A stretch of DNA of 64,000 bases from Porphyridium purpureum (Eukaryota), in the NCBI GenBank assembly GCA_008690995.1, contig VRMN01000002.1:1116001-1180000 (forward strand), written 5' to 3'. Shown piece after piece: positions 9,249-59,778 of the stretch (positions within the stretch are counted from its first letter, which is position 1; every line of letters starts with the position of its first letter). The notes beneath the pieces are model-generated. The model did not search any database and was not told the DNA's origin. It worked only from the letters and a program-made list of their open reading frames with translations. The translations under genes and the position numbers were made by a program.

Positions 9249-10361
9249 TCAGACCCGTACGACAAGCTTGTTGGCCAACGCCAGCGCGTGGTGGAGCCAC
9301 AGCGGCGTGTGTTTGTGAAGCAGCGGGCCTAGTAGAGAAAGCTTGACCCAAGGAACAGAGAACAGCCAGCGCTCGACGGCTAGCAGCGCATGCGCCGCGC
9401 GCGGAAGCACCACGGCATTGTACGTGGAAACGTGCACGCCATTCACCACAATATCTCCCGACGCCGTGTGCGGGTTGAACAACCCCTTTGCAGTCACACT
9501 GTGCGTAACCTTGACCACGTGAGCGCGAAGCGCCGAGCGGTCAGAGCCGCTGTCTGACATGACGGTCATCTCGTCTCCCACGCGAATGTGATGCGCTGCC
9601 ACGAGGCTGCCGCCATTCACGTACGCCAGATGATTCCGACTCAATGTGATTTCAGCCCCAGACGATAAGTCAATGCGCACGTACCGGTCCGACACAGCCA
9701 GCGGATCCTTATGACCCCAAAACACAACCGGGGAGAATACCTGCTCAATCGCTTCCTCATCGGTGCTTTGCTGGGCGCCGTTGGCGACAGCGCGCACGAG
9801 GACGCGGTCTCCCACCGCAAGTTCGGCCATGCTCTTGATCTGACCGCTCTCCAACTGCACTCGTGCTGAACCCGGAAAGCAATCCTCGGCCGCCGCTGGC
9901 GGGTCTGTCTCGAGAACGCAATTCACTTCGGTGAACTTGACGGACTCTGCCTGGTTCACTGGGGACCTGCTATCCTCCAGATTATAGCACGTATCGGAGC
10001 TAACCTCAGTCTCACCTGTAAGGATGAAGCCCGTGAGTTCGGGATCACCGTCACAATCCGTGTTTCTCCACACTGTGAAGTACAAACGGAGGCGATTCAT
10101 ACTTGCAGAGGTTCCCGAGCACGATACATCCCACTCATACGACTTGCTGATATTCTCGTCGAACAAACACGTCATCGATTTCGGCGTCTCACAAAGCTCG
10201 GCGCCCGTGCAGTTCTCGCCACTGTACAAACACCACGAAAACGTGGTTCCCTGCGCATGCACCGGACTTCCCACCAACGCCACCATCGACAGCAGCAGCA
10301 GCGTCAGCAACAGCGGTGGCAGCGGCGAGACCGCCGGACCGTAACCTGTACGCGCTCCCAT
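9249..10361 (-). CDS. Secreted protein with a Cys-rich N-terminal domain and a C-terminal Hedgehog-type Hint (Hog) domain
   Basis: Signal peptide LLLTLLLLSMVALVGSPVHA; Hint starts D|CFPGSARVQLESG (Cys codon 9881-9879), then MAELAVGDRV, TLSRNH, GLFNPHTASGDIVVNGVHVSTY and an SRR-like tail AAHALLAVER. Confidence 0.88.
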   Translation of the reverse strand: MGARTGYGPAVSPLPPLLLTLLLLSMVALVGSPVHAQGTTFSWCLYSGENCTGAELCETPKSMTCLFDENISKSYEWDVSCSGTSASMNRLRLYFTVWRNTDCDGDPELTGFILTGETEVSSDTCYNLEDSRSPVNQAESVKFTEVNCVLETDPPAAAEDCFPGSARVQLESGQIKSMAELAVGDRVLVRAVANGAQQSTDEEAIEQVFSPVVFWGHKDPLAVSDRYVRIDLSSGAEITLSRNHLAYVNGGSLVAAHHIRVGDEMTVMSDSGSDRSALRAHVVKVTHSVTAKGLFNPHTASGDIVVNGVHVSTYNAVVLPRAAHALLAVERWLFSVPWVKLSLLGPLLHKHTPLWLHHALALANKLVVRV

Positions 10362-29309: not shown

Positions 29310-31643
29310 ATGTATGCGGCATGGTGTCTTTTGCTGGCTGCTCCATCAGAAAGAGCTACCACGTTTCAACGACATCATGGTGTGCATGCGTCGCCGCGCT
29401 CGCGCTCGCGCCCTGGCTCGCGCGCGGTGATTGTCATGGCTGCGAGGGACAGAAAAGTGGTGCTGGGCTTGTGCAAATACAGTCATGATTCATCCGTGGC
29501 GGTCGTGGATGCTGAGACAGGGCAGCTGTTGTTTGCTGCAGCAAAGGAGAGGCTGACGCGCCGTAAGCACGATGGCGGGCCCGTTGGACAGTTGGTCGAG
29601 CATGCGTTGGATAGTCTTGGTCTGAGTCTCGATGCTGTAGAGCTTGTCGTGTCTAACAATCACCACTTTCGGATCTCAGACTATGAGAAGCGGCTGCCGT
29701 TCGCCGCGGCGATCGGTTATGTTGAGGAGGACGCGCTAGACAGCTGGAACACGCTTGCTTCATGCAAGGCCAGAAAAATGGAGATCTCTCATCACATCGC
29801 GCACCTTTTTTCGACCGCGCCGTATTCCGGGTTCAAAGACGAACATCTCGTGATCGTCATGGATGGCATGGGTGAGGCCTTTCGTGAATTTGCGAGATCG
29901 AGAGGAGATGGTGACACGGGAAGTTGTGATTACGCAACGGAACTTAATTCGATGCCGGACAGTGTGCAAGCACAGTGGATGCCACCCCTGGCCGTATTAA
30001 ACACGGCTGAGTACGGGCACCGTGAAGCAGAGTCAGTATATCGCGTAAAAAATGGGATGCGCGATGTTTCGCTGGAGTTCAAGCGCTTTGCGCGTGAGAA
30101 CTCACCGCCCGAATTGTACAATCACGGATTTGAGAACATGGATAGCCTCGGTGCGGTATACTCGCGAATTTCGTCGCACATTTTTGGCGACTGGAACGCA
30201 TGCGGCAAAGTACAAGGGCTTGCGTCGTACGCAGTGGAGAAAAGTGAGCGTCTTCGCCGCACAAACAAACCTTTCATGCGAGGTTCGCTTCTCGATGGCT
30301 CTTTCAGAGTCGAGTGGGAGCATCTGGCCAGCTTGGCAAACACTAATCGATGGAGCGAAAGCAAGAAGAACCCAGATTTATTCTCACAGTACGTGTGCGA
30401 CGCAGCTCAAGTGCAATTGGACCTCGAGACAGTAGTGCTGGATCTTCTCCACGGCATGCAGAAAAGGACGGGAATTAGGCATGTCGCTCTTGCAGGTGGT
30501 GTTGCGCTCAACTCGACAATGAATGGAAGGATCATTCGCGAGTGCGGCTTTGAGGAAGTTTACATTTCGCCCTTTCCAGGAGACGAAGGGATCGCCATTG
30601 GATGCGCCATGTACGGTTACTCATCAATACACACAAACTCAGCAGAATGTTTGACACAGGCAAGTATGAGTCCGTATCTGGGCCGCGAGTACGGCAAAGA
30701 AGAGATTGATGAAGCTGTCTCTCTTCACGCGGCATGGCTGGATCGAGTCAAAGTCAAAAAGGCCGAGCTTTTTTCTTGTGTTGCAGAAATGTTGGCCGAG
30801 GGGAAAGTTGTGGCGTGGTTTCAGGGACGTGCTGAGGTAGGTGCGCGCGCGCTCGGAAATCGATCTATCCTTGCTGATCCGCGCAATGCGTCCATGGTAG
30901 ATCGCATCAACGTGAACATCAAGCAGCGCGAAACATTCCGCCCGTTTGCACCGTCAGTTTTGTCCGAGCATGTCGCAGATTATTTTGAGGCAGATCAGCC
31001 TAACATATCCCCGTACATGAGTGTGACAGTTCCCGTGCTCAAGGAGAAGCGTGCCGTGGTGCCTGCCATCACTCACATTGACGGAACCGCGCGCTTGCAG
31101 ACAGTATCGCGTGTGCAAAATGAGCGTTTCTATAGACTAATTGAAGCTTTCATGGATTTGACCGGGGTGCCAATGCTGCTCAACACCAGTCTCAATATTG
31201 CTGGAGAGCCGATTGTTGAGACTCCGATCGATTGCATTCGCGCATTCCTGGCGTCCGCAATCGACGTGCTGGTTTTGGGCGACGACGTTTACACTAAACG
31301 AGCACCGACCCGTGCTCTTCGGGACAGCCTCGTTCGTGTTGTCGATCAGACATATTTCCGTGTGGAGCAGACTAGAAACATGGAAGGTGATGTCTCTTAT
31401 ACACACATGGTAGTGGATCGTGGGGACGGGTTAGAGACAAGAATCAAGTTTGACTGCGCAGAAGAGTACGAACTCTTCAACTTGTTGTTCACGGGTGAAT
31501 TTATGCATGGAAGCGCCACAGATGAGCCCACACCCGTTGATGTCATTATTGACAATTGTCTTGAGGACGAGGATGTGCTTGAAGAGCAGGTAATTCAACT
31601 TTTGGAGTCACTGTCGGAAAAGCGACTCATCGTGATAGAGTAG
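29310..31643 (+). CDS. Carbamoyltransferase of the NodU/CmcH/TobZ family, with a probable plastid transit peptide
   Basis: HDSS, KERLTRRKHDG, HHIAH, DGMGE, GKVQGLASY, LAGGVALNS, GDEGIAIG, GARALGNRSILADPR, KQRETFRPFAPSV, HIDGTARLQTV, LLNTSLN.AGEPIVE. Confidence 0.9.
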   Translation: MYAAWCLLLAAPSERATTFQRHHGVHASPRSRSRPGSRAVIVMAARDRKVVLGLCKYSHDSSVAVVDAETGQLLFAAAKERLTRRKHDGGPVGQLVEHALDSLGLSLDAVELVVSNNHHFRISDYEKRLPFAAAIGYVEEDALDSWNTLASCKARKMEISHHIAHLFSTAPYSGFKDEHLVIVMDGMGEAFREFARSRGDGDTGSCDYATELNSMPDSVQAQWMPPLAVLNTAEYGHREAESVYRVKNGMRDVSLEFKRFARENSPPELYNHGFENMDSLGAVYSRISSHIFGDWNACGKVQGLASYAVEKSERLRRTNKPFMRGSLLDGSFRVEWEHLASLANTNRWSESKKNPDLFSQYVCDAAQVQLDLETVVLDLLHGMQKRTGIRHVALAGGVALNSTMNGRIIRECGFEEVYISPFPGDEGIAIGCAMYGYSSIHTNSAECLTQASMSPYLGREYGKEEIDEAVSLHAAWLDRVKVKKAELFSCVAEMLAEGKVVAWFQGRAEVGARALGNRSILADPRNASMVDRINVNIKQRETFRPFAPSVLSEHVADYFEADQPNISPYMSVTVPVLKEKRAVVPAITHIDGTARLQTVSRVQNERFYRLIEAFMDLTGVPMLLNTSLNIAGEPIVETPIDCIRAFLASAIDVLVLGDDVYTKRAPTRALRDSLVRVVDQTYFRVEQTRNMEGDVSYTHMVVDRGDGLETRIKFDCAEEYELFNLLFTGEFMHGSATDEPTPVDVIIDNCLEDEDVLEEQVIQLLESLSEKRLIVIE

Positions 31644-45105: not shown

Positions 45106-47862
45106 CTACTGCTCCTTGGTCCAGTTCAAGAGCGAGTGCACATTCCCTTCCATTTGCGCCGCTGGAGTCCTCACCTGGAAACGCAGTCGCCCGTCGTACA
45201 AATATTCGTGCAGCTGAGAGATAGAGCGCACGCCCAGATCCTGGAAGCCGTGCCTCACGCCCGCCACCAGATACGGCATAAAGCGCTTGATGCTTCCACG
45301 GTCAGCCACAGCGCCACTGACGCCCTGCGCGACACGGACGCGCTCATCCTCACTGAAATACCGCGACGCGCTTCCCTTTTTCATCGCCTCAAGGCTCCCC
45401 ATGCCGCGGTACTTCTTCAGCCGTACGCCGTCTTTGTAGAAATACTCACCGGGCGATTCTTCCGTACCCGCGAGCATGCTGCCCATCATGACGGCCGATG
45501 CGCCTACACACAGCGCCTTGATGATATGCCCTGTGGACGAAATACCACCGTCTGCAATCACGGGCACGCCAAGCTCCCGCGCGTAGCTTGCAACCTGGTA
45601 CACGGCCGTGGCTTGTGGGCGCCCGCAGGCCATCACTTCCTGTGTGGTACAAATACTGTTGTGAACTATGTTGTTTGCGGCGATAAAGGAGTGTGTTGCA
45701 CAGCCAACCTCGATGTCCCACACTTCCATTGGCTCGGCTACAGGCTCGATGGAAAGAATCGTTCCGTACATAAAATCTTCCGTGCAACGGGTGTCAGACG
45801 CCGTTCTGACAGCGTATCCTTGAGCCAGCTTATCGAGCGATGCCCGTTTCAAATTCTCAACGCTTACCGGCACTTGTCGCACCCCGTACGACTTTTGCAG
45901 TGTCATGCAGCACCAGCTAAACAATTCAATGACTCCAGGAGCAGTGGACACTAACCAATCCCTGCCAGGGCGCTCCTTGATGCCGTCGGAATCGACCAAG
46001 CCATCGTAAATACCCTGAGCGTATTCTTTGTTTCTGCACCACATGTTTGCGGGTAAATGCTTTTCAGTCTTTTTCCCGAATGAGCCGAAGAGTTCGGCCG
46101 TACGCGAGCAGTAGAAGTGAACGCTCTTCACATTCTTGCCTTGCTCATCATCTTGAATGACCACAGGCTTCTCAAACACACTCTCAATGCAGTCTTTCAG
46201 CTTTTCAGCCACCACGTCTTCGTGTTTGGCAAAGTACCAGGACACGCGACCCTGGAAACTATTCTTATATTTCACAAGAGCGGCGCATCCACTTCCAAGG
46301 AACGTCCCAAAAATGTATCCCAAATCGTACCCACTGTGCAGGATTCGAGTCATGGCAAAGGTGTTATTCGCGGTCATGAGGAGGTCATCATCCTCGCATT
46401 GAGATACGTCAAGCGCCAGCTCAACTGAAAAGTCTTCAGGGAGATCAAACTCGATGTCACTTGGCATCAACGTAAACGTGCTCTTCGTGTCGCAAGTTCC
46501 GACGGCGGTCCAACCAATTTCCTCTTGCTTGTTCTGCATGATCGGGGCAACGCTAGTCTTCGAAGCGTTTGGCGCGTCAGCGCGGTTTGCCATCCAGAAC
46601 TTGTGATCACTCGTAACATAGATAGGATGAGGCCACTTGGAAAACGTGGCTTTGACCACTGCTTTCGTGCCACGGTTGACAACCGCTGTGACGCGCACGG
46701 CTTTGCCCTTCATGTTGATGACGCGCTCTCCAACTTCAATGCTGGAAATGGCGCGGTAACTTCCGTCGGCCATCAACACGGGAGTCTCCGGACCAAAACA
46801 CCCGCAGCCCATGCCAATGCGCAGCGCGTCGACGCCCATCTTAATCAAGTGGTGCGCCTGGTTGCGCGTGACAACATTCCCCCCAATAACTTCAAGCTCC
46901 GGATGCTTTTCCTTGATGTAGTGGATCATGTCAATCTGGTAAATTGAGTCGCCCTGCGACGAGTCGAGCACCACCACATCCAGCCCGGTCTCCACCAGCG
47001 CGTCCAATCGTTCGCGGTCCTCTGGGCGGGTACCAATTGCGGCACCGCACAGTAAGCGTTTCCCTGATGCATCCTTCGATGTGTTTGGATAAATCTTCTG
47101 CTTCTTTAGATCGGTGCGCGCGACCAGGCCGACAAGCTCGCCCTGCTTGTTGACAATGGGCAATTTGCCCTTCTTGGACTCCTTCAGAATCGCGTGTGCC
47201 TCCTCGAGTGTGAGGCCTTGCTGACCGGTCACAAGTTCAGAGGTCATGCACTCCGACACAAGCACATTGTCGATATTGCGCACAAACTCCACGTCGCGGT
47301 TGGTCACAATGCCGAGCAATTTGCTACCCATCTGCCCACTTGCGGTAATTGGGATACCGCTAAAGCCGTACTTTTTCTTGATCGCCAGGGCATCCGCCAC
47401 GGTCGAGTCGGGGCTGAGCGTCTTTGGGTCTGTGATGAAGCCGTTCTCGTACCGCTTCACCCGGTCGACCTCCTTTTGTTGTTCGCGAACGGAGCAGTTG
47501 TAATGAATAATGCCCAAGCCGCCCTGCAGTGCCATGTTAATAGCCATTTCACTTTCCGTGACCGTATCCATCGGTGAGGAAATCATTGGCGCGTTCAGCC
47601 AGAGCTTGCGCGTGACGCGGCATCGTGTGTCGACGTCGTCTGCGGCAAAGTAGATATGACCTGGCAGCAACACAAAGTCATTATACGCGTACCCAGACAC
47701 GCCTTGCGAGAAGAGGTCCTGCCCCGCCACGCCATCCTGCAGCTTGAACAGCTCGTCGTCAGCAAAGTAGGGCGCGAGATTCTTAAAGCCCGCGCGTATC
47801 GATCCGCCAGAGTACAACCCAGGCGCAGCCGACGCGCCGGTCTCCTTTCCGTTCATACTCAT
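45106..47862 (-). CDS. IMPDH: Inosine-5'-monophosphate dehydrogenase (eukaryote type, with CBS pair), precursor containing an intein
   Basis: [48 protein letters not shown]|intein|[43 protein letters not shown]; start uncertain. Confidence 0.96.
45658..46800 (-). mobile_element. Intein (381 aa) with a LAGLIDADG/DOD-type homing endonuclease domain
   Basis: Block [14 protein letters not shown], block B VTSDH, endonuclease motifs [10 protein letters not shown] and [11 protein letters not shown], blocks [21 protein letters not shown], +1 Ser; removal restores GMGCGSICTT. Confidence 0.95.
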
Positions 47863-48718
47863 CTTCACGCCGCACTCCGTTCGACCCCTCCCCTCGCTTC
47901 CAGCACCGCCACCACCACACCCGACCCAAACGCTGCGCGTTCCCCTTGTGCCTTGCGTCCAGACTTGCCCATGCTCCCGCACGCACGACTTGCCCCCCAC
48001 CCGCATTGAGCGCACGGCGGCGGTCCACGAAGCTAAAAACCAAACGAGAAAAGAGAAAAAGAAAACCCCTCCAAAATCATAAAACGCACACCTTTTAGTA
48101 CGAACCCCTTGTCGCACCGCAACGTGCCCGTCCGCACAAACCATTAACCCGATAAACCGCGACCGCGCGTCGTTAGGCTCAAAGGCGTAGCTGTACCTCC
48201 TCCCTTTCTGTTGCGCGCCCTGATTTTTTGGTGTGCTTTTAGTATGTTTTGCTCGTCGAGGTACTGTTTGTCCATAACTTTACGTTGCCAACAAAACGAC
48301 GACACAAACACACACACACACACGTGCTCACACGCACGTGCTCAACCACTTCACACGCACCAAACTCAAAAAAGAACACCAACAGTGAAAACGCCGCGTG
48401 CATCAAAGGGCGGTGCTTTTTTGTCGTTTTGGGCTCTATCTAACAAAACACACCCGATTTGGGATTCGTCACCGTACGTGTCCGATTTGGGTTACGGTCC
48501 TTGGTTGTGTTCCTTTCGGTCGCCTCATTTTTTGGGTTGAATGGAGAAAGGTTTTGATTTTCAAAGTTTTGGTAGTAGGCGCGTGCAGTGTGAAGATGAG
48601 CGTGTGCGTGTGCGGGGATGGTGCGAGGAGAGGAGAGACGAGAAGAGAGGGAGTGGGAGAGCAAGTGGGAGAGGGGCAGGGAGGGGAACGGCTTGGGTGG
48701 GTTAGAGCGCAGGGGAGG

Positions 48719-51700
48719 ATGGTGGTGCGCGATGGCGCGCGGACGCGGGTGCTGCCCGCGATGGTGGTGGGCATCGTGGGGGTTGTGCTGCTGAGCATGC
48801 ACGGCGTGCGCGCGCAGTGCACGCCGGAGGATGAGTCGAACCCGTCGTTTGAATGCGAGGGGGTCATGTTTGCGCCGGGATTGCTGGTGGAGGACGCAGA
48901 CGCGACCGACGCGGATTTCCGAAACGCGTCGTTCTTGATTGCGCAGTTCATTCGCACCACGCTGGATGATGCGACGTTTGAGGACGCCACCATGATTGAC
49001 TTTGTGTTCAATGGTGAGACACCCGAGGGCGGCACCACGTCCGCGCAGCGCATTGATTTCTCCAAAGTTACCGCCCAGAGTGTGAATATCCTATCGTACG
49101 ATCTGCGAGGCATGTCGTTGGTGAACGCGTCCTCCACCACTTGGCGTATGAGCAACGTCGACGTGCGCAATGGCATGTTCCGCAACTACTCGGCGGTTGG
49201 AACAGGCATCGTCACAAATGCGGACTTCTCGGACAGTGATTGGGTTCTTGCAGAGATTGAGACGGTGCAGTACACGAATACAACGTGGACGGACGCCAAC
49301 TGTTTGGCGTCGACGTGGAGCATCGTAGAGTTTGTTGACACAGACCTTTCTGGCGTGCGCTACGGCAGCTCGCAGCACAAGCTCGGAAACTGGCGCAACG
49401 TCGTGTCCTCGGGCATGACGGGTCCCAGTATGCTCATTCAGAATATGCAGTTTGAGAATGTCGAACTGACGGACTTTCAGATCAACGGGGCGACTATCCA
49501 AAGTGGGAACGGCGGCTTTATTATGGACTCGCGCTTTTCAATGGGTACTTTCACGGGCACACTTTTCCAGAACATCGTTATTTCAAACTCGGACTTTATG
49601 AGCGTCGGCTTTTCGAACGCACGCTTCTTCGGAACTGATTGGATTAATTGCACATTCACGGATGGAAGCTGGGACGATCTGCTCATGAATAGTGGATCTT
49701 TTGATCCTGACTCCAGGATTGTGGACGTCACGGGCACGAACGTGCGGATACGGTTGCCTGCGAACCTGACCGGTGTGGAGTTTACTGGCGTGACATTTGA
49801 GCTCGAAACAGACGCGCTCTTTACCAGGGCCATATTTTCGGGCAGCGATTCAACGCTGTCTGGCTCGGATATGACCGGCGCGAATTTTGACCGCATCGAA
49901 ACCATGGGTGCCACCCGGCTTATCGTGAGGGACGCGGATCTGACCAACGCGACATTCCGTGGAGCGACATTGCGCGAGTCCGACTTTCGAGGTTCCACGG
50001 TTGACGGCGCCAGCTTTCGCGGGGTTGCAGCCAACGCTTCATCTTTCCGAGAAATCATGTCCTCGTCGAGGCGTGCCGACTTTTCGGCCTTGCCAACGGG
50101 CCCGAACATGGTTCGCGTGACTGATTTGCGGAACGCAGATTTCACAGATTCGTCGTTGAACGCCGCGCGATTTGTATCTGCTGACTTGCGATCTGCAAGC
50201 TTTGGAAATGCTGACTTAACATCTGCAGACTTCCGCTTTGCGCGACTTGATGGCACCAATTTTGGCGGTGCCATTTTGGAAGACGCCGACTTTTCGATGG
50301 CCACTGGCCTCGGCGAGCCATGTGAAGACTTCTGTAGCGGGCGGGGCTGCAAGTGCTCAACCATTCCGCAGTGTGCGAACGGTGAAGAACCTTCTCGCGG
50401 CTCAGATTGCTCCAATTCCAACCTGTCAAATTATACATATGTCGGTGATGACTTCACAGGCACTGACTTTTCGTCTACGGAGTTCGTCTTGATTGGAATG
50501 GATGCGGTACTGCTTGATAATGCCACCTTTGAGGGCGCCGTGTTGACGGATTCTTTCTGGCTCGGCGCGTCTGCGACAGATGTCGACATGCGATCGATCT
50601 CGGCGACAAACTTTGTTCTAGCGGAAACGGACGCGTCTCGGGCGCAAATGCAGAGAGCAACGTTCCAAGGTATGTCCGAGTTGGTCGACAGCAACTTGAC
50701 GAATGCGCAAATGAACGGAATGGTGCTTGCGGGGAATTTCACTGTACGCAACGCGGACATGACCAATGCGGATCTATCGCTGAGTGTACGATTCGGCTCG
50801 GCGAATATTTCTTTCGTGGACGTCATCGCATCAGGCGCCATCTTTGATCGTGTGTCCTTTTTTGACTCCTACTTTCTGCGCTGCGACTTTACGAACGGCG
50901 TGCTCACGTCGGCGTCGCTTGCTGGCTCGCTCTTTGAGGACGCCACGTTCGAAGAATGCTCGTTCGCTGGTGCTATCATGAACGACATTACAACGCTGCG
51001 GGTTAGCTTTAATGGCTCGCGAATGGACGGTATTGACTTTTCGGACTCGAATATTGTGGGAGCAGTCTTTCCGCGCAGCCAGGATTTCGTTTTCACATCG
51101 CTGCGGGGCGCGTCTTTCAATCGGGCTCAGCTTGACGCCGTCAACTTCAACGACGCCGATTTGTCTCTTGCAAGTTTTTCGGGTGCGAATATCACCGACA
51201 CGTGCACGTTCAATCGCGCCAACTGCACCGGAATCTCGGGTGTCGACGGCGGGTGTGAGGGTTTTTGTTTGCAGCGCGGTTGCTTCTGCGCACCACCGAC
51301 GCCTACGCCAACGCCATCACCGACGCCGGTTCCGACGAGGAACCCGTCGGACACGCCAACACCCTCGCCGACACCAACGCCAACGCCCACACCGACTCCG
51401 ACGCCTTCGGGACCTACGGCTTCGCCGTCGGTCATGCCATCAAGGACGCCGAGTCCCGCGCCTTCGCCAACCTCGGAACCCTGTTTCCCGGCGAGCGCGA
51501 TGGTGGAGCTGGAAGATGGCCGCACTCTACGCATGGACCAGTTAGAATATGGCGACCGCGTGCGAGTGAGCCCGGCGGGGACGAAGGATGCGTTCAGCTC
51601 GGTGTACTTTTTCGGGCATCGGGACGCCACACGAACGGCAGAGTATGTCCAGCTTGACTTGGAGGATGGCAGCACACTTCGCGTGTCGGCTCTGCACTTC

Positions 51701-52057
51701 GTTTATGTAGATGGCGGCGTGCGAAGAGTCCGTGCAGACGCCGTGCAGGTAGGCGCGAAAATGCTAGCGGCAGATGGCGCTCTGAAGCGCGTGGTGGCTC
51801 TTCCTGGGCGCGTACAGGAGCGCGGTGTGTTCAATCCGCACACAGAGCACGGCGATATATTCGTAGATGGTGTCAAAGCGTCTTCATACACGGCGCTAGT
51901 GCACCCGATGTTGGCGCACATGCTGTTGGCGCCAGTTCGATTGGCTTACCGCGTGTGTGAGCTGCGGCTCCTTGGAAACTTGTTCCACATGGATTTGCCG
52001 GAAGGGGTGCGCACGATTGCGGCGCCTTTGCTCAGCGCTTTGAAGGAAAGTTCGTAG
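48719..52057 (+). CDS. Secreted pentapeptide-repeat protein with a Pro/Thr linker and a C-terminal Hedgehog-type Hint (Hog) domain
   Basis: Signal [18 protein letters not shown]; many A(D/N)(L/F)xx repeats ([25 protein letters not shown]); (PT/PS)n linker; [14 protein letters not shown] at 51482, [43 protein letters not shown]. Confidence 0.9.
51290..51480 (+). repeat. Coding Pro/Thr/Ser-rich repeat linker
   Basis: [15 protein letters not shown]...[14 protein letters not shown]. Confidence 0.85.
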
Positions 52058-58521: not shown

Positions 58522-59778
58522 TTAATTTGGCAGGATAAACTGGAGGGCAGCAGTTATGGCATCAGCGAGGCGTCGCCAGTCCTGCTCCAAATCCTCGACG
58601 GACTCTCCATTTTGGGTGGTAAGCATAGGACGCACGGCCTTGCGCGCTGCCCCGCCAAACGCCACCCCGCCGAATTGGGCAGCGGTCAGAAGCTTGCTAC
58701 GCTGTTGTAAGAGCACGTGCGTATGTTCATTGGTTCCGCCGGCGAGCTGCACGAAGCCTGGAAGACCCAACGAGTGAACGCCGTCCAAAGCTTTCTCTGC
58801 CAGTCGGACGGATGCATGACTAGTCCCCTTACCCAAATCGCCGCTCATCGGTCGGCCATCTGTTTGCCATATCAGCTCCACATGAGACGCCGCGTCGTGT
58901 CCGAGAACCAAATGCATTTTCCGCATCTCGCCGGTCAGATCGGGCATGTCCGGAAACGAAATTGCAACCAATTTCAGCTCGCGAAGGAGCGTGTGAGTGG
59001 TATCGTTTTCTGTCATTGCCACGGCGCCTGCACGGTCCCAAAAGCGTGCGAATGCTGCCACGCCTTGAGGCCGCGTGTGAATTTCAATCGCGTCCACTTT
59101 CATTCGAGAAATCAGCTCGACCAGCTGCTCGATCGGCCGCGTGTAATGCACAGCATCAATGATTCCGAGAGGACAAACAGGAATGCAACGGCCACAACCA
59201 TAGCACTTCGCACGATCAACCCCCTGGAGCCCAATGGCATCGGCAGGACAACTGATTTCGCACGGCCGCGGGCAATCGGATGGACAGCGGTCCGGGTCGA
59301 ACACAGCCTTCCTAAAATGCGGGTCCTCGTCATCATTTACGGAAACCATGAGGATCGGCTGTCTTTGCGAGAGCTCGAACCGGTCCAGCACGCTATTTGC
59401 TGTATCTATTCCCTGTCGTACAGCCCGTACGACCGCCTCATCTGCGGCACAGTCAATGCAGTCCACCCCTGCAAGCGTGTACACGAGAGCGAGGTTGCGC
59501 ACCAGCGGAACATCCTCAGTTGATGCGCCGCATATGAGCTTGACCCAGTTCTGCCGCTTCAGTGACACCAAGCCAACTGATCCACGTGACGAAGCGCGTT
59601 GCAACACACATCGCAACGCGTCCTTATCTGCAGAAACGCGTGTGTCGAGTATCACTATGCTGTCCTCTCGCATATGGGGAAAGGAACGGGCTTTGCGAAC
59701 CGTACATCCCACTCTACTATCTACCACACGAGGCCGCTTCCACACCGCGAGATAGCCCGCATTCACAAACGCCAGCAT
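58522..59778 (-). CDS. ldpA: LdpA (light-dependent period)-like Fe-S protein, plastid-targeted
   Basis: MLAFV transit start; WVKLICGAS, LAGVDCID.AAD, MVSVNDDEDPHFRKA.FD, CPSDCPRPCE.SCP, CYGCGRCIPVCP, WQTDGRPMSGD.G.G, QLAGGTN. Confidence 0.9.
   Translation of the reverse strand: MLAFVNAGYLAVWKRPRVVDSRVGCTVRKARSFPHMREDSIVILDTRVSADKDALRCVLQRASSRGSVGLVSLKRQNWVKLICGASTEDVPLVRNLALVYTLAGVDCIDCAADEAVVRAVRQGIDTANSVLDRFELSQRQPILMVSVNDDEDPHFRKAVFDPDRCPSDCPRPCEISCPADAIGLQGVDRAKCYGCGRCIPVCPLGIIDAVHYTRPIEQLVELISRMKVDAIEIHTRPQGVAAFARFWDRAGAVAMTENDTTHTLLRELKLVAISFPDMPDLTGEMRKMHLVLGHDAASHVELIWQTDGRPMSGDLGKGTSHASVRLAEKALDGVHSLGLPGFVQLAGGTNEHTHVLLQQRSKLLTAAQFGGVAFGGAARKAVRPMLTTQNGESVEDLEQDWRRLADAITAALQFILPN

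Follow-up and report, generated by a model that had tools for sequence, protein, structure and literature searches.

The DNA analysed here, hereafter the window, is a stretch of 64,000 nucleotides from Porphyridium purpureum (contig VRMN01000002.1, positions 1,116,001 to 1,180,000). A single minus-strand open reading frame, called in the window at 45106-47862, encodes a protein of 918 aa. Its full product matches the IMP dehydrogenase (IMPDH) model TIGR01302 (611 bits, cut-off 481) in two pieces that lie 381 residues apart. The pieces are separated by an in-frame insert of 381 aa, located exactly at 45658-46800 on the minus strand, which starts with Cys1 and ends with IVHN. LRIGMGCG precedes the insert and SICTTQEV follows it, and excision restores the conserved GMGCG-SICTT loop of the host protein, which confirms the split of the active site claimed in a preliminary description of this DNA. 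The first residue of the C-extein aligns with residue 329 of human IMPDH1 (E 3e-78); Ser+1 corresponds to Ser329 and Cys+3 to Cys331, which we take to be the catalytic nucleophile. The insertion point lies two residues before this cysteine, in the IMPDH catalytic loop. The gene contains the following features.

46801..47862, minus strand: IMPDH N-extein, 354 aa, with a CBS pair, ending LRIGMGCG (71-74% identity to Porphyridiales IMPDHs)
45658..46800, minus strand: intein, 381 aa, with a Hint splicing domain, a nested accessory region and a LAGLIDADG endonuclease, as indicated by family models, alignment and predicted structure
46798..46800, minus strand: Cys1 nucleophile, block A (invariant in a 103-row alignment)
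46603..46614, minus strand: block B, T63-S-D-H66 (T and H in 118/118 full-length rows)
46288..46323, minus strand: first LAGLIDADG motif, block C, with Ser170 (46291-46293, codon AGT) replacing the catalytic Asp (Asp in 110/117 full-length relatives; model helix 158-170)
45982..46023, minus strand: second LAGLIDADG motif, block E, Asp272 intact (Asp in 116/118 rows; model helix 258-272)
45658..45726, minus strand: blocks F and G with D362, H370, H380 and N381 (each in 118/118 full-length rows)
45106..45657, minus strand: IMPDH C-extein, 183 aa plus stop, with Ser+1 (45655-45657) and Cys+3 (45649-45651), from the human IMPDH1 alignment

The residue set of class 1 inteins is complete (C1, T63, H66, D362, H370, H380, N381 and S+1) and identical to that of the relatives; Cys1, the TSDH motif, the terminal His-Asn and Ser+1 had already been noted in the preliminary description and are intact in the alignments. 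A Hint HMM match, named there as a check, was obtained with Pfam Hom_end_hint (PF05203; residues 1-51, E 7e-8, 33.1 bits, cut-off 32.1). Intein_splicing (PF14890; 24.1 bits, cut-off 35.8) and TIGR01445 (17.6, cut-off 24.5) stayed below their thresholds, and no LAGLIDADG Pfam model matched the intein at E up to 0.1. This near-invisibility to family models may be why the intein escaped notice. The protein is present in NCBI, UniRef and EukProt, and its automatic annotation may flag a Hint domain. An AlphaFold model of the intein, built from the 103-row alignment, reached a pLDDT of 93.4 and a pTM of 0.92, and its best Foldseek matches are endonuclease-bearing inteins, namely TliVMA (E 1e-17), PI-SceI (E 1e-15), PhoVMA, PI-TkoII and PI-PfuI. 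The PF05203 match and the likeness of the model to solved inteins both point to a Hint fold. The two LAGLIDADG helices of the model (158-170 and 258-272) lie in a two-fold pseudo-symmetric domain with matches to PI-SceI, PI-PfuI and I-DmoI. With the VMA inteins of known structure (Sce VMA1 or PI-SceI and Tli/Pho VMA; PDB 1vde, 7qsu, 7qst), the algal intein shares the arrangement of Hint, accessory and LAGLIDADG parts (Foldseek E 1e-17 to 1e-13) and, in the case of PI-SceI, N-terminal sequence likeness; however, identity is only 12-16%, the host protein is another one, and the algal intein resides in a red-algal nucleus. Judged by its residues and predicted fold, the insert is a class-1-type (canonical) intein in a red-algal nuclear IMPDH.

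A search of longer proteins with the intein gave 238 matches. The best 120 of these include 119 non-query proteins, whose inserts all end in His-Asn before a Ser, and 118 of the 119 are IMPDH or GMP-reductase proteins cut at the same loop, so that the site is not an exotic one. More than 100 IMPDH/GMP-reductase genes of bacteria and viruses carry the family there. Where a host is named, it is a bacterium (Actinomarinicola, Ktedonobacterales and others) or Marseillevirus LCMAC103; two loci of the family (L002 and L006) have a phage-like context and a third (L004) an AT-rich, Rab-bearing, giant-virus-like one. The contiguous inteins of this loop (P0003-P0121) share family and insertion point with the algal intein and are 32-46% identical to it over the full length, but most keep the block C Asp that the algal intein has lost, and among the matches listed none is named as a nuclear eukaryotic gene. 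A full HMMER search returned 512 cluster representatives at E up to 0.001; the best 150 of these contain 138 new ones, four of which have eukaryote-type exteins, none closest to red algae. No relative was detected in INPHARED phage records at E 1e-5, nor a family member in 160 IMPDH-family loci (L010-L169) by tblastn at E 1e-4. We found no paper describing a contiguous LAGLIDADG intein family in the IMPDH/GMP-reductase loop (P0003-P0121, P0367-P0504). The remaining one of the 119 relatives, P0076, is an adenylosuccinate-synthetase-family protein (PF00709) that carries the same intein family at TIKTG/C...HN/STCSGVG, which may reflect a non-allelic jump between two IMP-using enzymes. Mini-inteins of 135-157 aa were observed in the eukaryote-type IMPDHs P0488/P0505, P0465 and P0481, which belong to the wider intein clade introduced below (P0505 is the protein of Marseillevirus LCMAC103); natural mini-inteins of this size are of possible interest for protein engineers.

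In the extein tree, the algal IMPDH forms a 4-row clade with Erythrolobus, Timspurckia and P0125 (support 99), nested in a 25-row red-algal clade with Galdieria, Rhodosorus, Rhodochaete and Gracilaria. The other rows of this clade have an uninterrupted, intein-free loop throughout (24/24). Among the best 120 of 4335 matches of the extein search, 118 of the 119 non-self matches are empty and none carries an intein. The TIGR01302 score, the CBS pair and the placement among red algae identify a eukaryotic nuclear IMPDH, in line with the eukaryotic exteins of the preliminary description, and the host gene is, by this phylogenetic evidence, native to the red alga. Empty red-algal alleles have the Cys at -2 as well, so this residue was not acquired for the sake of the intein. 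At the protein level the flanks match red algae and not the donor clade, and no sign of a co-converted viral flank was seen.

The closest relative of the intein is the 188-aa mini-intein of P0046/P0241 (76/111 and 47/76 identical residues in the two splicing halves), followed by the full-length intein of P0003 (46% identity). The exteins of these proteins group apart, in a deep clade of eukaryote-type IMPDHs with 20 rows (support 99), 14 of them empty and six intein-bearing (one full intein, five mini-inteins). In a 40-row intein tree (a subset picked to span larger trees, calculated like the extein tree under LG+G4 with no mixture model, and with mini-inteins filling less than half of the columns), the algal intein and the six inteins of the 20-row IMPDH clade together make up a 7-row clade (99/98), within which the algal intein groups with P0046 and P0266 in a subclade of three rows (100/99). 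When four more, short mini-inteins were added, the inner supports dropped to 90 (algal intein, P0046 and P0266) and 84, and a 10-row clade held at 95. Monophyly of the six inteins to the exclusion of the algal one was rejected (AU p=0.0017), as was a grouping of the algal extein with that of P0046 (p=4e-42, 24 extein rows). This discordance between the separate trees, which the preliminary description had suggested building, indicates that the algal intein is foreign to its host gene and was gained laterally, as proposed there. Synonymous third-position GC is 0.58 in the intein and 0.70 in the exteins (p=2e-4); since the former lies inside the range of the other ORFs of the window (0.54-0.72), base composition is weak as evidence.

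As to the donor, a phage, giant-virus or bacterial origin had been suggested, which can now be narrowed to a probable giant-virus IMPDH lineage. A metagenome scan gave seven loci, of which the contig L008 is the sole one in the donor clade, that is, one member of the 20-row IMPDH clade. A neighbour gene on L008 matches 99-100% viral clusters, mostly Nucleocytoviricota (score 0.91), and the other genes of the contig are long open frames. In the wider 10-row intein clade (support 95), the mini-intein of P0488 clusters with the Marseillevirus LCMAC103 protein; the extein of P0488 falls outside the 20-row IMPDH clade. Therefore, the donor was quite probably a giant virus, the viral label being drawn from one contig neighbour (L008) and one named protein (LCMAC103). 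Seven scans of viral contigs for the donor clade yielded no clade locus or unrelated weak matches in six cases and more distant IMPDHs in one, and an Atlas search with P0241 returned generic IMPDH clusters only, with uninformative taxonomy.

The same intein might have been gained laterally from an unsampled cellular group, a protist or a bacterium. None of the proteins of the clade that were looked up bears an organism name and the sister P0046 comes without contig context, but the other 19 clade proteins are uninterrupted ORFs on environmental contigs. GT-AG introns in the L008 IMPDH are a eukaryote-like trait, but the neighbour on the same contig matches Nucleocytoviricota clusters, its other genes are long open frames, and a related intein resides in a named Marseillevirus protein. 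Eukaryote-type IMPDHs occur in bacteria, for example Vampirovibrio, but a scan of prokaryote genomes gave no locus above 48% identity among the matches listed. We consider a cellular donor unlikely, while granting it a small but real chance, and prefer a giant-virus donor. The L008 IMPDH gene (L008:890-3303) contains about eight short GT-AG introns of 46-58 nt. Four similar ones lie back to back at about 1706-1904 (introner-like stacking), and two lie inside the mini-intein, at about 2088-2133 and 2293-2342; these are introns in an intein, in a probable nucleocytovirus. Such introns suggest that the lineage uses the host nucleus, which would be a plausible setting for homing.

The preliminary description had assigned a full-length homing endonuclease with two LAGLIDADG-like motifs to the insert. 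Full length and both helices stand, but the block C Asp is replaced by Ser170, and the enzyme is likely dead. Asp is found at this position in 110 of 117 full-length relatives (5 Asn, 1 Tyr and 1 Gly in the rest; P0018 is left out of this count) and in 95 of 100 further motif-bearing relatives. Active LAGLIDADG endonucleases carry an acidic residue at both helix ends; here, Asp272 is kept and Ser170 occupies the other end. The algal intein deviates in 12 of 81 conserved columns, against a median of 1, and is tied for the most deviations, as 2 of 117 others reach 12. Ten of the 12 lie at residues 71-315, a stretch partly or wholly absent from the mini-inteins of the family; the 12 are mostly outside the core splicing motifs. 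According to the accessible text of a study on PhoVMA (PMC8966425), the catalytic acids reside in blocks C and E, and inactivity accompanies their loss, a decay of the same kind as in the algal intein. The homing endonuclease is therefore full-length but likely inactive, a state in keeping with the stage of the homing cycle at which decay follows fixation. Retained cleavage or nicking by the endonuclease, with an intein still spreading among strains, seems improbable: the domain is full-length, folds well in the model and has Asp272, Lys243 and Lys247 intact, but it has a Ser in place of the block C Asp, a loss that accompanies inactivity in PhoVMA, and no empty allele occurs in the contigs of eight runs (contigs drop rare variants), as expected after fixation.

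That the intein is old in Porphyridiales, or passed from alga to virus, and was lost from the sister algae is very unlikely. Sampling of Porphyridiales is thin (three other rows) and codon use is largely ameliorated, which would suit such a history, but the algal intein is nested in the inteins of another lineage, themselves nested among many environmental inteins, and a precise loss would be needed in every sister, all 24 other red-algal rows being empty.

At least 95% of the words sampled from the window were found in 20 of 24 listed public runs, from nine studies, 11 of the runs being a possible source of the window DNA itself. Contigs of all eight runs examined carry the intein, with no skipped form, RNA included. 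In each of the four RNA or probable-RNA runs (two, from a single study, are recorded as RNA), one contig extends across both junctions, and no joint skipping the segment was seen in these contigs, which drop rare variants; the segment is thus retained in mRNA. Both junctions are also covered in four further runs, of which three are presumed to be DNA and one is of unspecified kind; a single contig suffices in three of the four, while X6 needs two that overlap. The strains differ at five coding positions, always synonymously, and two of the five lie inside the intein. No GT-AG pair lies in register with the intein junctions, and an RNA-level intron was rejected on this ground and because RNA-library contigs keep the segment. 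Both outcomes that the preliminary description had set against an intein, removal of the segment from RNA and a failure to span the junctions, are thereby answered. Cover is absent upstream of 47990 in the RNA runs and two other runs end there too, so that this hints only weakly, if at all, at transcript ends. No second IMPDH copy at 80% identity or more was detected in four runs, and among the best 120 of 4335 extein-search matches there is no other long-contig protein of like placement. An artefact, be it mis-assembly, a contaminant or an RNA-level intron, is hardly conceivable. The 918-aa protein is a singleton cluster from one contig, but this contig measures 2.4 Mb, the neighbours in the window are eukaryotic housekeeping genes (TAF9, OST3/6, Sm protein, mitochondrial carrier and eIF2B-type gene), as the preliminary description had argued against contamination, the sampled words recur across 20 runs and nine studies, the intein occurs in strains with differing SNPs, and the in-register GT-AG pair is missing.

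Taken together, we regard it as probable that a class-1-type intein homed from a giant-virus IMPDH into the red-algal nuclear IMPDH, is predicted to self-splice and carries an endonuclease that is likely inactive. Following established class 1 chemistry, Cys1 would form a thioester by an N-S shift, Ser+1 would take over the N-extein, Asn381 would cyclise with the help of His380 and His370, and an O-to-N shift would restore GMGCG-SICTT, in which Cys+3 could attack IMP. The 918-aa precursor is predicted to yield an IMPDH of 537 aa and to be inactive itself, because the insert lies two residues before the catalytic Cys. With this Cys cut off from the remainder of the barrel by the insert, the enzyme would be able to serve guanine-nucleotide synthesis only after splicing; ideas on conditional splicing can therefore be put to the test in an alga that grows in culture. 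Historically, a virus with an intein-bearing, eukaryote-type IMPDH may have infected an algal ancestor, whereupon the viral intein endonuclease would have cut the conserved empty site of the host nuclear gene and repair off the viral template would have copied the intein alone. The allele would then have been fixed and the nuclease have decayed (Asp170 to Ser), with splicing still under selection. It is tempting to go further and to see the first red-algal nuclear intein, the fossil trace of a giant virus, itself unknown, that had entered the Porphyridiales nucleus, kept as a conditional guanine-nucleotide switch, for example a Cys1/Cys-2 redox trap beside Cys+3, with a dead nuclease and in what is apparently the only IMPDH gene of the cell. 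We consider this extended reading doubtful, and a regulatory role of the intein is speculation.

Split inteins IMPDH-1, -2 and -3 were described from fractured metagenomic genes (Dassa et al., 2009; PMC2677866). As far as the accessible text of that paper goes, the IMPDH-1 family agrees with the algal intein in its host family and in a terminal His-Asn followed by Ser (IMPDH-1 ends VVHN-S, with the same +1 Ser), whereas its sequence is by eye not close to the algal family, and IMPDH-1, -2 and -3 come in two halves that flank a free-standing endonuclease gene, unlike the one contiguous ORF with nested LAGLIDADG of the alga. The preliminary description proposed a match of the insertion points, which may hold. 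In the accessible text of two surveys, nuclear eukaryotic inteins are rare, patchy and located in conserved sites of essential proteins, and viruses are proposed as vectors (Green et al., 2018, PMC5784728; Gallot-Lavallee et al., 2023, PMC10710043). The algal intein is of the same kind, but IMPDH is not among the hosts named in those texts. The accessible part of Green et al. (2018) has no IMPDH host, and all red-algal inteins in it (45/45) are plastid DnaB; that of Gallot-Lavallee et al. (2023) gives 15 host groups outside Anaeramoeba, has no mention of inosine or GMP and argues for viral spread, and its appendix and Datasets S1/S2 may bear on novelty. The preliminary description, which knew of no such intein in red algae, gains some ground here: no paper on a nuclear-IMPDH intein or a red-algal nuclear-gene intein was found in the open-access literature covered, and both surveys, as far as accessible, list only plastid inteins for red algae. 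The accessible text of four further papers (PMC11168065, PMC7090010, PMC12702839, PMC12768974) contains nothing on the red-algal IMPDH gene.

The host protein in a nucleus, the lineage and the traceable donor look new; the chemistry looks ordinary. Nuclear inteins are rare outside fungi and Anaeramoeba, and the algal case extends their range by a host protein, a lineage and, with nucleotide metabolism, a functional class. The clean conflict between gene and intein trees points to virus-to-nucleus homing, the route that both surveys propose in their accessible text (PMC5784728, PMC10710043), and the probable donor lineage holds empty, full-length and mini alleles.

Some other genes of the window deserve mention. 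Two plus-strand genes encode proteins with a C-terminal Hedgehog-type Hint module (PF01079), a Hint family other than that of the intein: a long pentapeptide-repeat protein encoded immediately upstream of IMPDH (48398-52057, E 6e-30) and a second protein at 9252-10361 (E 5e-29). A carbamoyltransferase (29310-31640, plus strand; PF02543 and PF16861) belongs to a family more typical of bacteria, and its lateral acquisition is possible. Finally, the nuclear genome has, at 58525-59778 on the minus strand, a gene for a homologue of LdpA (light-dependent period A), an Fe-S protein associated with the cyanobacterial clock.
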